Of a stretch of 64,000 nucleotides of DNA, positions 11,996 through 13,301 are shown piece after piece (position 1 is the stretch's first letter; the number at the start of each line of letters is the position of its first letter). A program made the position numbers and the translations under genes. A model generated the notes under the pieces. The model was not told where the DNA came from. It saw nothing but the letters and a program-made list of their open reading frames with translations, and did not search any database. The DNA is from Escherichia coli (GTDB taxonomy: Bacteria > Pseudomonadota > Gammaproteobacteria > Enterobacterales > Enterobacteriaceae), in NCBI RefSeq assembly GCF_003018255.1, contig NZ_CP027440.1. One strand, written 5' to 3'.

Positions 11996-11998
11996 ACG

Positions 11999-12790
11999 AT
12001 GAATAAACAATACGAACTGGTTGTTAAAGGGATAAATATTTACCCGGATAAGATTACTGTTACTGTGGCGCTGGAAACGGGTGGGTATACGTCACTGTTG
12101 TTGCCAAATGTGGTGATTGATCTTGATCGTGTTGAAGGTGCCCCGCTGGAGTTTTACGAAGCTGAGGCGAAAAAGAAGGCGAAGCAGTTTTTCATGGATA
12201 TTGCTGCCGGGTTATGTGAAGGGAACGAACCGTTGCCGGAAAAGCGCCTCTGTTCAGAAGAGCGGTATACCATACAAATTAACAATGCATATAACACGAT
12301 ACAGTCAGAAAAAGATGATATCGAATCACGCATTGAAAAACTGGAGAACAGCGTCGTTGAACTGAATAAAAAACTGTCGGTGCAGATCCCTTCCGAAGGT
12401 GAAAAAAAACGCCGTGATGAGCAGTTCGCGGCGTTTTACGATTATTGCCGGAAAGTGATGAGCAGAAATCTCGCAGAGTGTTTCCGTATTCAAAAAAACA
12501 GAGAGCGCTCTGCAAATAGTGAGATTCTGGATAATTTTTTAAAGGGGACGCATCTCGCCAGTGATTGTTTCATTGCTCATTCTTTTGGTGGCTTTCATGA
12601 GGCCATCAAACATGATGTTGAGAGAAGTCCAGGTATCCTCTGTTCCATTCCCGTAAGCATCGAAATAGACACAAATACGATAACCGGTGAACTCGTTACC
12701 GCCGGAGTCGGTATATTCCGTCATGAGGGGAACGATGCCAAAGGTTCCTTTACAAAAATCGGGCCGTTCTTTCTGAAGGTAGAGCGATAG
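11999..12790 (+). CDS. hypothetical protein (cargo between S and R)
   Basis: 263-aa ORF starting 3 nt after the S stop with GGGGAGAG RBS; AT-rich; central coiled-coil-like segment; 3' end overlaps the convergent ORF. Confidence 0.5.
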   Translation: MNKQYELVVKGINIYPDKITVTVALETGGYTSLLLPNVVIDLDRVEGAPLEFYEAEAKKKAKQFFMDIAAGLCEGNEPLPEKRLCSEERYTIQINNAYNTIQSEKDDIESRIEKLENSVVELNKKLSVQIPSEGEKKRRDEQFAAFYDYCRKVMSRNLAECFRIQKNRERSANSEILDNFLKGTHLASDCFIAHSFGGFHEAIKHDVERSPGILCSIPVSIEIDTNTITGELVTAGVGIFRHEGNDAKGSFTKIGPFFLKVER

Positions 12791-13171
12791 TTTGTTAAGT
12801 ACCCATCCGACAGCTCGCTCATTTTGGTTTATTTTCGTATCGCGAAACAAAAATTCGAAGCGGCCAGATGACGCATGGGTGCAACCAAATACCGGGGCGT
12901 ATTCATCAACCTTTGGTGTTCCTGAAAACATGCAGTCCGTGCTCTCGAATGCAGATGAATTGCTGTTGATCCACTTAACAAAAGAAAAAAAGGTCTGAAT
13001 CGCTTGTCTGTCTGAATATTCAACAAAATCCTCAAGGTGTGTCTCGATCAGTTCCGGGTGTTTACGAAAGTCATAATATTGACCGGGACGATATTTATGA
13101 GTGGTTGTTTTATCCCATGGTTGTGCTCTGCGTCCCTGTAAACGGAGGTCTGCCGCTGGATAGATAAGCAT
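12539..13171 (-). CDS. hypothetical protein (cargo between S and R, antisense to late operon)
   Basis: 210 aa from ATG at 13171 with AGGAG RBS 7 nt upstream (longer ORF-track start 13240 lacks RBS); AT-rich; no family recognised. Confidence 0.5.
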   Translation of the reverse strand: MLIYPAADLRLQGRRAQPWDKTTTHKYRPGQYYDFRKHPELIETHLEDFVEYSDRQAIQTFFSFVKWINSNSSAFESTDCMFSGTPKVDEYAPVFGCTHASSGRFEFLFRDTKINQNERAVGWVLNKLSLYLQKERPDFCKGTFGIVPLMTEYTDSGGNEFTGYRICVYFDAYGNGTEDTWTSLNIMFDGLMKATKRMSNETITGEMRPL

Positions 13172-13301
13172 AAGTAATCTCCTGGTGGAATGTAATCCAC
13201 GATCATCCGGGGAAATTAAGAACCCGCCAGTGCCCACCACTGGTGGGGTGAAGGCTTAACATATCCAGGGATTCGGAACCGATAAATCCTGATAAATATC
13301 C

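Follow-up and report, generated by a model that had tools for sequence, protein, structure and literature searches.

A single-gene antisense cassette with a putative nested late-strand reading frame between the holin and lysozyme genes of an Escherichia coli prophage

The interval between the holin gene S and the lysozyme gene R was analysed in a window of 64,000 nucleotides of Escherichia coli DNA (the whole stretch examined, from contig NZ_CP027440.1 of assembly GCF_003018255.1). This spacer (11996-13301) very probably consists of a resident YdfR-type late gene and a single-gene antisense cassette. The cassette gene, g210, encodes a 210-aa protein on the minus strand and is overlapped in antisense by a second open frame that lies on the strand of the late operon. 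Our preferred reading, to which we give a probability of roughly 0.45, is that g210 would be a lysogen-expressed moron with this nested late-strand ORF as its partner, analogous to the Tha/Ith pair of Staphylococcus aureus prophages. The features of the region are as follows.

11780..11995, plus strand: class II (S21-type) holin of 71 aa, left flank (PGAP 'class II holin family protein' in a 100%-identical record)
11999..12790, plus strand: 263-aa late-strand ORF (from the ORF list), in which the nested-frame polypeptide continues a YdfR-long N-terminal part in frame
11999..12286, plus strand: DUF1327 (YdfR) domain, residues 1-96 of the 263-aa ORF (Pfam PF07041, E = 1.5e-33, 115 bits, above threshold)
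12287..12484, plus strand: coiled-coil segment and conserved 'YDYCRKVMSRNLAECF' junction of YdfR-long proteins, residues 97-162 (homologue comparison)
12485..13222, no strand: variable cassette of ~0.74 kb with the 210-aa gene (alignment to L059 and PhiR12_1)
12488..12513, minus strand: terminator-like hairpin (12513 to 12498) and T-run, 26 nt past the g210 stop (terminator scan)
12515..12790, plus strand: nested-frame segment, residues N173-R263 of the 263-aa ORF (alignment with stand-alone versions)
12539..13171, minus strand: g210, which runs against the late operon and encodes a soluble 210-aa protein from an uncharacterised family (ATG at 13171)
12788..12790, plus strand: nested-frame stop, complement of g210 codon Leu128 (CTA) (comparison of codon 128)
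13179..13183, minus strand: Shine-Dalgarno AGGAG of g210, 7 nt 5' of the ATG at 13171 (read from the sequence)
13302..13835, plus strand: lysozyme R, 177 aa, right flank, with an N-terminal SAR-like hydrophobic segment (PGAP 'lysozyme')

The geometry of the two ORFs was as described in an earlier sequence-only reading of this DNA, which had reported convergent ORFs of 263 aa (+, 11999-12790) and 210 aa (-, 12539-13171), a plus-strand start 3 nt after the S stop (the holin ends at 11995 and the ATG is at 11999), a strong AGGAG ribosome binding site for the 210-aa gene (13183-13179, 7 nt before the ATG) and a 3' overlap of ~250 nt (12539-12790, 252 nt). The same reading took S and R to be normally adjacent. 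In the Qin prophage of K-12, however, the gene order is essQ-ydfR-rrrQ, with a ydfR-type gene between holin and lysozyme, and partial matches to the spacer region were found in 1400 of 5426 complete E. coli genomes. The N-terminal part of the 263-aa protein shared 38% identity with K-12 YdfR in a 99-aa alignment (E = 3e-20), and residues 1-168 spanned the full length of phrog_2091, with PHROGs 1085, 2735 and 406 matching too. The coiled-coil core, previously listed as a feature of the insert, belongs to the YdfR-long family: the segment is shared with two alternative occupants of the S-R slot, the 297-aa YdfR-long protein of locus L059 and the 169-aa protein of PhiR12_1, which is followed by a different antisense gene (Pfam gave weak coiled-coil-type matches only at residues 98-133). 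These comparisons assign residues 1-162 to the YdfR/DUF1327 family, as a resident late gene of the kind that usually fills the S-R slot. The view that neither protein could be placed had to be abandoned for the 263-aa protein (DUF1327, E = 1.5e-33) and was upheld for the cassette frames, for which no lysis, toxin or defence family was found.

The edges of the cassette were delimited by alignment. On the left the sequence diverges from the YdfR-long protein of L059 after 'AECF' and from PhiR12_1 at ~12449; on the right similarity to PhiR12_1 is back at ~13223, and the next 80 nt (13223-13301) were also found with a cassette remnant in locus L052. At the same slot the cassette is absent in PhiR12_1, L059 and K-12 Qin. 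A repeat search for insertion scars gave no target-site duplication and no terminal inverted repeats, only short chance-like matches. In place of the two-gene insertion that had been proposed, this synteny comparison, in which residues 1-162 of the plus-strand ORF are resident and only ~12485-13222 is variable, points to a true insert of ~0.75 kb with one minus-strand gene, situated at the 3' end of the resident gene. The cassette appears to be foreign, mobile, moron-like DNA within the late operon, its gene antisense to late transcription.

Base composition, contrary to what had been supposed, did not mark the insert, since the GC content was 0.442 in the resident YdfR-like part and 0.439 in the cassette (0.53-0.54 in S and R). 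For 11996-13301 as a whole it was 0.446, compared with 0.542 for the holin, 0.534 for R and 0.557 for the esterase gene; the lowered GC that had been noted by eye was thus confirmed (0.446 against 0.53-0.56 in the flanks), but the dip was shallower than the 35-43% given then. With a window mean of 0.518 (sd 0.054), 10.6% of the same-size windows had a GC content equal to or below that of the spacer. The dip is modest, genuine yet not exceptional.

The spacer region with the cassette was present in 118 of the 5426 complete E. coli genomes, most of the copies being at least 99% identical, and the cassette was also found in 8 deposited Stx phages. In a Stx1a phage the 11999-13301 block was essentially identical, while the S and R of that phage differ from those of the window. 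A stx-linked function was considered and rejected, the prophage being without a stx gene in the usual place. An Rfam scan of 11000-14500 returned sub-threshold matches only, none of them within the spacer.

The ATG of g210 at 13171 is the alignment start for all its homologues and lies within a longer minus-strand ORF that begins at a GTG (12539-13240, 233 aa). Homologues of equal length were found at 53-65% identity, and the relatives as a whole formed 227 representative clusters, with equal length retained down to ~30% identity. The sense-frame omega-like ratio was 0.15-0.22. Both g210 and the 263-aa ORF were intact and identical in all 15 sequences checked (the window, 12 viral contigs, L001 and L002), and the decay into pseudogenes that the sequence-only reading had considered was not seen in them. 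Several prophages carry an inactivated g210, so the gene is dispensable.

Structure prediction for g210, which the same reading had suggested, gave an AlphaFold2 model with a mean pLDDT of 94.9. A HEPN-like fold was sought among its structural neighbours in PDB, AFDB and BFVD and was not found, the fold had no counterpart among the solved structures searched, and a sequence-profile search of PDB gave a chance match only (E = 0.71). Searches of Pfam, PHROGs, PADLOC and NCBIfam gave no match for g210 or for 10 divergent relatives; in PADLOC-DB 2.0 neither of the two window proteins nor any of the 10 relatives had a match at E <= 0.1, and g210 matched none of the toxin and antitoxin families in Pfam and NCBIfam. 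A lysis accessory role was rejected, as no membrane or muralytic features and no lysis-related Pfam or PHROG family were found: the maximal Kyte-Doolittle value (19-residue window) was 0.46 for g210 and 1.08 for the 263-aa protein, compared with 1.70 for the hydrophobic segment of the holin and 1.74 for residues 9-27 of lysozyme R. On these data g210 is a member of a new protein family with a very confidently predicted fold, and a family of this kind, with its 227 representative clusters, is ready for functional testing.

Of 37 loci on viral contigs, 35 had the g210 homologue opposed to the late operon, and so did L008 and L052, two prophage loci fetched separately; the orientation was judged where flanking genes could be identified. 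This antisense placement and the mobility of the unit agree with the moron-like module proposed earlier. Four different late-operon sites were occupied. All 21 E. coli-type loci had the order S, YdfR-like gene fused to the nested ORF, R; in 14 loci the order was tail L-K-I, nested ORF, J, with tail proteins that were sometimes only 45-55% identical to the query set. Homologues were also located before a P22-type holin, near a Kiwa system, and between Q and the holin, where in L052 the gene of a coiled-coil protein precedes the nested ORF. Homologues of g210 travel without any YdfR-like gene. One (36-37% identity) lies directly after a Peptidase_S24 cI-like repressor and is co-directional with it, and a distant homologue was located among ordinary chromosomal genes. 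It appears that one clade of the g210 family was recruited as a moron by enterobacterial prophages.

The 3' overlap had been thought meaningful from the window itself, and comparison with homologues supports this: the overlap does not appear accidental, since it is kept at quite different prophage locations. Most homologues borne by prophages have such an antisense frame of ~90 codons, free of internal stops, in the final third of the gene. In 9 of 11 non-redundant homologues codons 129-210 contained no antisense stop, and codon 128 was CTA or TTA, which is an antisense stop, in 9/11. The N-terminal 127 codons of the same genes contained 3-14 antisense stops each. When synonymous codons were shuffled, P ranged from <0.0002 to 0.056 in eight of the nine open-frame homologues (P = 0.35 for the remaining one, L013). 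An open in-frame ATG was present no more than 75 nt past the sense stop in 10/10 loci, compared with 0/10 and 1/10 for the other frames, and this ATG and its Shine-Dalgarno-like motif lie outside the g210 coding sequence. A Shine-Dalgarno match of at least 4/6 was found at the ATG nearest the overlap in 7/10 loci and at any open in-frame ATG in 8/10, against a background of 24%.

Elsewhere the nested ORF stands alone, with a length of 89-116 aa, and is called as a protein by gene callers; two such proteins of 104 aa (P0161 and P0164) were 86% and 76% identical to the nested segment of the window. It lies 29 nt downstream of tail gene I, as a regular gene of the operon would, and its frame is undamaged in loci whose g210 has been disrupted by a deletion, an IS element or a frameshift. 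In the window the nested frame has no ATG of its own, the ATG position being occupied by AGT (12518-12520), and an internal ATG at 12458 (M154) would yield a 110-aa product, as in L015 and L034. In-frame variants of 110, 161, 264 and 305 aa have the same fusion junction as the 263-aa ORF, which is itself annotated as a CDS in a DDBJ phage record. The junction hardly varies among the E. coli copies, and the in-frame state has therefore not been tried by evolution.

Conservation of the antisense frame gave p ~0.001-0.002 by column permutation, with sense identity equal in both parts of g210. Sense-synonymous divergence was lower in the overlap than in the control part (0.65 vs 0.82; 0.56 vs 0.83 for close pairs), pSN/pSS was 0.54-0.60 in the overlap and 0.88-0.93 in the control, and the antisense omega-like ratio was 1.0 in the overlap and 2.1 in the control. 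For dNN/dNS there was no significant difference between overlap and control (0.73 vs 0.80, and 0.57 vs 0.75 for close pairs, with overlapping intervals). Codon composition accounts for part of the excess of antisense-silent changes, and the position-1 excess was not relied on because it is partly compositional. The reduced synonymous divergence could instead stem from RNA-level constraint or recombination. The AlphaFold2 model of the nested peptide, made from 9 sequences, was poor (mean pLDDT 55), the nested-ORF peptides had no match in Pfam, PHROGs, PADLOC or NCBIfam, and the nested ORF was absent in a copy at the Salmonella sodC locus (L004) and in a distant member of the family (L064). It persists in homologues down to ~37-39% host-protein identity, at four genomic sites. 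Given this pattern we lean towards the nested ORF being a real translated gene; it probably arose by overprinting, because it is confined to one clade of an older family.

The hairpin and T-run past the g210 stop have a complement that encodes the linker 'IQKNRERSA' of the plus-strand ORF, and the hairpin is weak evidence on its own because 3 terminator-like sites were found in the region while 2.1 were expected from shuffles. A terminator-like site was not found on the plus strand of the S-R interval, nor did the window contain a sigma-70 consensus promoter for g210, and promoter-like sites in the homologous loci were no more numerous than in shuffles.

If the preferred reading is correct, g210 would be expressed in the lysogen from the minus strand of the cassette. 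Such expression is likely, in view of the orientation of the gene and the one homologue directly after a cI-like repressor. Late transcription would have to run through the cassette before arriving at R, the endolysin gene, so that lytic growth would oppose g210 by convergent transcription and at the same time make the nested-frame polypeptide. As a lysogen-phase accessory gene g210 would most plausibly serve in defence or exclusion, and the nested late-strand product could act as its off-switch during the lytic cycle of the prophage itself, as Ith does for Tha. By analogy we tentatively suggest such a role for g210 with the nested product as antagonist, while considering it somewhat less likely than not. 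Rather doubtful is the most complete form of the idea, a switch of two proteins whose coding frames share one 250-bp stretch on opposite strands: a lysogen effector of a new family (defence or exclusion), an overprinted antidote of ~90 aa made only under late read-through, and a unit that hops among the tail I/J, Q-holin and S-R sites. In the Stx-type phages of E. coli this antidote would have become fused to YdfR, the K-12 version of which is an RNase E-binding protein.

Several other explanations of the locus were weighed. It is somewhat unlikely that the cassette is a plain single-gene moron, in which g210 is real, the nested frame is a non-functional by-product kept open by the codon usage of g210 or by nucleotide-level constraint (antisense RNA or a recombination tract), and the last 90 residues encoded by the 263-aa ORF are read-through junk on a truncated YdfR-like gene. 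In-register antisense frames are relatively stop-poor, the dNN/dNS values resemble those of the control, part of the signal is compositional, AlphaFold2 gives a poor fold for the nested peptide, L004 and L064 lack the nested ORF, and PGAP treats the plus-strand ORF as a truncated DUF1327 pseudogene, all of which fit this explanation. It is, however, at odds with a stop depletion that is limited to codons 129-210, with an ATG and Shine-Dalgarno-like motif beyond the g210 coding sequence (the ATG in 10/10 loci and in this frame only), with the conserved position of the nested stop, and with the placement of the nested ORF as an operon member just after tail gene I. An addiction or toxin-antitoxin-like pair, with g210 as the toxin and the nested protein or the antisense transcript as the antidote, would stabilise the cassette or the prophage rather than defend against other phages. 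The compact two-component unit does move between sites as one piece, and its antisense arrangement is like that of type I systems; one homologue adjoins a gene with a SocA_Panacea domain, which we take to be an antitoxin domain, and one long relative has a RelB/DinJ-like tail, which is weak (E = 0.009) and with 16 bits well below the family cutoff of 45.65. Yet the lack of any toxin or antitoxin match in Pfam, NCBIfam and PADLOC, the presence of g210 without the nested ORF in L004, in L064 and probably in environmental genomes, which is unexpected for a toxin, and the survival of the nested ORF where g210 is broken make such a pair improbable.

That both ORFs form one foreign two-gene module between an otherwise adjacent S and R is very improbable. 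YdfR-family homologues of residues 1-162 fill the slot without the cassette in K-12 and in the 1400 of 5426 E. coli genomes, g210 homologues travel without the YdfR-like gene, and the proposal fails on synteny comparison, although the two ORFs share a lowered GC (0.442 and 0.439), the 11999-13301 block is shared with the Stx1a phage whose S and R are different, and the coiled-coil protein gene before the nested ORF in L052 goes part of the way towards such a module. Hardly credible is the view implied by PGAP, that of a decayed remnant made up of a ydfR pseudogene and non-coding debris. On a 100%-identical chromosome PGAP annotates in the spacer only an 83-codon partial DUF1327 pseudogene, and portal and tail genes of the same prophage are frameshifted there. 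Decay is nevertheless difficult to reconcile with two ORFs that show neither damage nor difference across the window and 14 other sequences and that lie in a region at least 99% identical in most of the 118 genomes, with equal-length g210 homologues down to ~30% identity and a model of pLDDT 95, and with the sense-frame omega-like ratio of 0.15-0.22; frameshifts in most copies were not seen. About 1 kb of conserved coding sequence is left without a call by PGAP, in a region that 118/5426 complete E. coli genomes carry.

If the nested frame is translated, the locus would be among the better-conserved antisense dual-coding gene pairs in bacteria, and there would be a functional rationale for it, namely that an accessory gene is coupled to the decision between lysogeny and lysis. 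The principle of autoimmunity control known from Tha/Ith would then extend from Gram-positive lysogeny modules to enterobacterial late operons, including those of Stx-converting phages. If the nested frame is non-functional, the result would be an ordinary one, a single uncharacterised moron beside a known YdfR-family gene.

Among known systems, the classical lambdoid morons (bor and lom of lambda and the morons of HK97) are extra late-region genes that are absent from close relatives, and bor is transcribed against the late operon from the prophage. The g210 cassette is similarly present in some phages and absent from relatives at the same late-region position. The classical morons encode known membrane or lipoprotein functions, whereas g210 is soluble, and we know of no report of a conserved nested late-strand ORF in them.

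Antisense overlapping genes of EHEC (ano, pop, laoB and others) have been described from RNA-seq and ribosome profiling in a single strain (PMC5960689, PMC7103648, PMC5810103, PMC9927249). They resemble the nested ORF in being embedded antisense in another gene, with their own start and a Shine-Dalgarno-like motif. The EHEC genes rest on expression data from one strain, whereas the nested ORF of g210 is conserved down to ~37-39% host-protein identity and over four sites. BstA is encoded by prophages, expressed in lysogens from a position after the cI repressor, and has a self-immunity determinant in its own locus (Owen et al. 2021, PMC8585504). This is comparable to the nested ORF within g210 in that a regulatory partner, putative in the case of g210, is embedded in the gene's own locus, but aba, 63 bp at the 5' end of bstA, is a DNA element and not a protein-coding frame. 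Moreover, neither a BstA-type nor any other known domain was detected in g210 with Pfam, and the BstA paper makes no mention of an antisense position in a late operon (PMC8585504).

YdfR of K-12 (Qin, DUF1327) shares with the window protein the PF07041 domain and the position between holin and lysozyme. Its residues 1-72 bind the catalytic N-terminal domain of RNase E (PMC13232886), and this binding and the co-purification of RNA have been shown solely for the K-12 protein (PMC13232886). K-12 YdfR is a single-domain protein of 103 aa; a coiled coil and the nested-frame module are extra in the protein of the window.

A parallel to the proposed mechanism is Tha/Ith of S. aureus prophages such as 80-alpha, in which the protein of a small antisense gene turns the defence gene off at induction and convergent transcription contributes (Rostol et al. 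2024, PMC11087260). Unlike Tha, which is a HEPN RNase, g210 has neither this nor any other known domain; because g210 lacks a HEPN domain or fold, the relation is one of analogous mechanism and not of family membership. The ith gene has its own constitutive promoter and lies in the lysogeny module, whereas the small ORF of g210 is contained entirely within the large gene's coding sequence, is placed for reading with the late operon and is fused, in the window, to another late protein. The geometry is nevertheless the same, with a small protein-coding frame (whose product is predicted in the case of g210) that is antisense to a large gene and overlaps it, and one g210 homologue lies in a cI operon, as tha does.

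The window corresponds to the late region of a prophage that is lambdoid and Stx-phage-like, in which the late genes are ordered Q, tRNAs, NanS-p esterase, DUF1378, DUF826, class II holin (S), the spacer studied here (11996-13301), lysozyme (R), Rz, Rha and then terminase, head and tail genes. Both open reading frames described for the spacer in the sequence-only reading were present as described, and they overlap by 252 nt:

11999-12790, plus strand: 263-aa ORF (the + ORF), beginning 3 nt past the holin stop
12539-13171, minus strand: 210-aa ORF (g210), with AGGAG 7 nt 5' of its ATG
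12513-12488, minus strand: terminator-like hairpin and T-run, 3' of g210

A GTG-started 233-aa version of g210 is not supported, since every homologue aligns to the ATG. The reported dip in GC content is real but only modest (0.446, compared with 0.542 for the holin gene, 0.534 for R and a window mean of 0.518, sd 0.054), and 10.6% of windows of the same size have an equal or lower value.

Elsewhere in the prophage, 1.9 kb separate an AraC-like HTH gene from the esterase gene (7275-9138), at the place that stx occupies in Stx phages. No stx-like ORF is present there, the identical chromosome has no gene annotated in it, and a unit containing the hairpin-like core CACCGGGAGGCACCCGG is repeated 3-4 times in tandem-like fashion, at intervals of about 265 nt. 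Just 3' of the esterase gene (11104-11177, minus strand), Rfam gives a sub-threshold hit to Esr41, an EHEC sRNA (E = 0.094; 25 bits, where the gathering score is 102), which is probably not significant. A 387-aa ORF at 31235-32398 fits in size and approximate position the annotated "porin OmpC" of a near-identical chromosome, where that gene sits within the tail region, between tape measure / tail protein M and L; if it is an OmpC porin gene, it would be a second moron of the same prophage. In the near-identical chromosome record the portal and tail-protein genes are frameshifted, so the prophage may be defective.

The spacer had been taken for a two-gene insertion. It is a real feature, but synteny and a DUF1327 match resolve it into a known YdfR-family late gene and a single-gene antisense cassette. 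Residues 1-96 of the + ORF match Pfam DUF1327 (E = 1.5e-33), residues 1-168 cover phrog_2091 over its full length, and the protein shares 38% identity with K-12 YdfR, whose residues 1-72 bind RNase E's catalytic domain and which co-purifies with RNA (PMC13232886). Given that the K-12 Qin prophage carries the YdfR gene in the same slot, between essQ and rrrQ, and that 1400/5426 complete E. coli genomes carry part of the region, a gene between S and R is the norm in this cassette type, and the + ORF is mostly this resident late gene.

Filling of the slot between S and R
K-12: YdfR, 103 aa
PhiR12_1: 169-aa DUF1327 plus coiled-coil protein, then a different small antisense gene
Locus L059: 297-aa YdfR-long protein with another C-terminal domain
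Window: YdfR-long part fused to the nested frame described below

The junction "YDYC(RKVMSRNLAECF)" is common to all long YdfR forms, and the coiled-coil segment noted in the sequence-only reading belongs to this YdfR-long family. Since the antisense gene of PhiR12_1 (L003 3215-3475, distal spacer, annotated DUF1823) differs from g210, antisense inserts seem to favour the 3' side of ydfR as a hot spot.

Alignment to PhiR12_1 and L059 places the variable segment at ~12449/12485 to 13222, and it carries g210 with its own SD, ATG and stop; the complement of the hairpin at 12513-12488 encodes the linker "IQKNRERSA" of the + ORF. A near-perfect palindrome, CCAGTGCCCACCACTGGTGGG (13224-13242), lies in the 80 nt 5' of R and is kept in phages with and without the cassette, as well as beside a cassette remnant (L052). 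That g210 is a genuine protein follows from its equal-length homologues (53-65% identity), its relatives in 227 representative clusters (at E <= 0.001), almost all of them 200-230 aa long, its AlphaFold2 model (mean pLDDT 94.9, pTM 0.91), a sense-frame omega-like ratio of 0.15-0.22 and the absence of transmembrane-like segments. No match was obtained in Pfam, PHROGs, PADLOC, NCBIfam or PDB, the AFDB neighbours (Proteobacteria, Acidobacteria and other groups) are almost all uncharacterised, and PGAP calls nothing at g210 in the identical chromosome. The cassette gene is a member of an uncharacterised family, antisense to the late operon.

In every prophage with identifiable flanks, g210 was antisense to the late genes, at four sites.

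Sites of g210 in prophages
S-YdfR-R: each of the 21 viral contigs of the E. coli type, 8 deposited Stx1a/Stx2a phages, 118/5426 E. coli genomes
Between tail I and tail J: 14 viral contigs, and also loci from chromosomes and metagenomes
Just 5' of a P22-type holin: a P22-like Salmonella prophage (L008), near a Kiwa system
Between Q and another holin type

The tail I/J site holds g210 across tail proteins that are only 45-55% identical. In each of the three tail-context loci examined, the module ends on the late strand with a GC-rich hairpin and, after it, a T-run, immediately 5' of the tail J ATG (L039 5873-5890; L011 479-494; L012 6857-6873); this terminator-like element would stop non-antiterminated transcription and let Q-modified polymerase pass. 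In L008 the Kiwa system (KwaA/KwaB, 11618-13257) lies ~3 kb from the g210 homologue in the Q-to-holin region, which acts as an accessory-gene hot spot. One homologue (36-37% identity) directly follows a cI-like repressor gene, co-directional with it and opposite to cro, the place taken by rexAB in lambda and by bstA in BTP1. In L013/L014 (519-959 / 448-888) another, of 37% identity, adjoins a SocA_Panacea-domain gene that, with a 117-aa partner on the opposite strand, is possibly a toxin-antitoxin pair. Because a distant environmental member is surrounded by ordinary chromosomal genes, the deep family is not intrinsically phage-borne.

The spacer is best read as carrying a prophage moron paired with a probable antisense gene; what was not expected is that the late strand has a conserved ORF nested within the last third of g210. 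The C-terminal 90 residues of the + ORF were initially expected to be accidental read-through, but the antisense frame instead turned out to be stop-free and conserved. In 9/11 non-redundant homologues (37-65% identity; not phylogenetically independent, as for all nested-ORF counts) the in-register antisense frame is free of stops over codons 129-210, and 3-14 antisense stops per gene fall in codons 1-127. At Leu128 an antisense stop is formed in 9/11, the codon there being CTA or TTA. When synonymous codons were shuffled, the per-sequence P was <0.0002 to 0.056 for 8/9 stop-free sequences (P = 0.35 for L013). This stretch makes up a discrete ORF, 89-111 codons long, with an open in-frame ATG at most 75 nt past the g210 stop in 10/10 loci (0/10 and 1/10 in the other two frames). 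An AGGAGG match of at least 4/6 precedes the ATG nearest the overlap in 7/10 and any open in-frame ATG in 8/10, against a background of 24%.

The overlap was also compared with the remaining, non-overlapping part of g210 as control. Both parts have equal sense identity (0.52, 0.54), antisense-frame identity is 0.38 in the overlap versus 0.29 (column permutation, p ~0.001-0.002), sense-synonymous divergence is 0.65 versus 0.82 (close pairs 0.56 versus 0.83) and the antisense omega-like ratio is 1.0 versus 2.1. Gene callers have already called the nested ORF (89-116 aa), for example on 69 contigs of Enterobacter asburiae, where it lies 29 nt 3' of tail gene I and resembles an ordinary operon member, and it survives undamaged in loci where a 200-nt deletion, an IS element or a frameshift has disrupted g210. 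A live alternative is that g210 is a plain moron and the nested frame a non-functional shadow ORF: dNN/dNS in the overlap did not differ from the control, one antisense-frame signal is partly compositional, the AlphaFold2 model of the nested peptide is poor, and the ORF is missing from the Salmonella sodC-locus copy (L004) and the distant member L064. Taken together, we consider the nested ORF to be a real gene with a probability of about 0.65.

In the window the nested frame lacks its own ATG, the place of which is taken by AGT at 12518-12520, and is joined in frame to the end of the YdfR-long part. This junction recurs after five different N-terminal architectures (110, 161, 263, 264 and 305 aa), and close relatives elsewhere have a separate 104-aa nested gene 3' of a coiled-coil protein gene. 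The in-frame fusion is not itself evidence of selection, given that the junction hardly differs between the E. coli copies.

By gene order, late transcripts must cross g210 in antisense to reach R, and no terminator-like site was found on the plus strand between S and R. In the proposed switch, g210 would be made in the lysogen, and lytic growth would oppose it through convergent transcription and simultaneously yield the nested-frame polypeptide, in this prophage fused to YdfR; that polypeptide may antagonise g210. A toxin-antidote pair formed by g210 and the nested product is likewise a live alternative to this switch. Judged from its placement, a putative role of g210 in defence or exclusion is plausible. 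No known domain (HEPN or other) and no PADLOC match was detected in g210, which belongs to neither the Tha nor the BstA family. The logic of the proposed switch has been demonstrated for Tha/Ith of S. aureus prophages (PMC11087260) and, in DNA form, for BstA/aba (PMC8585504).
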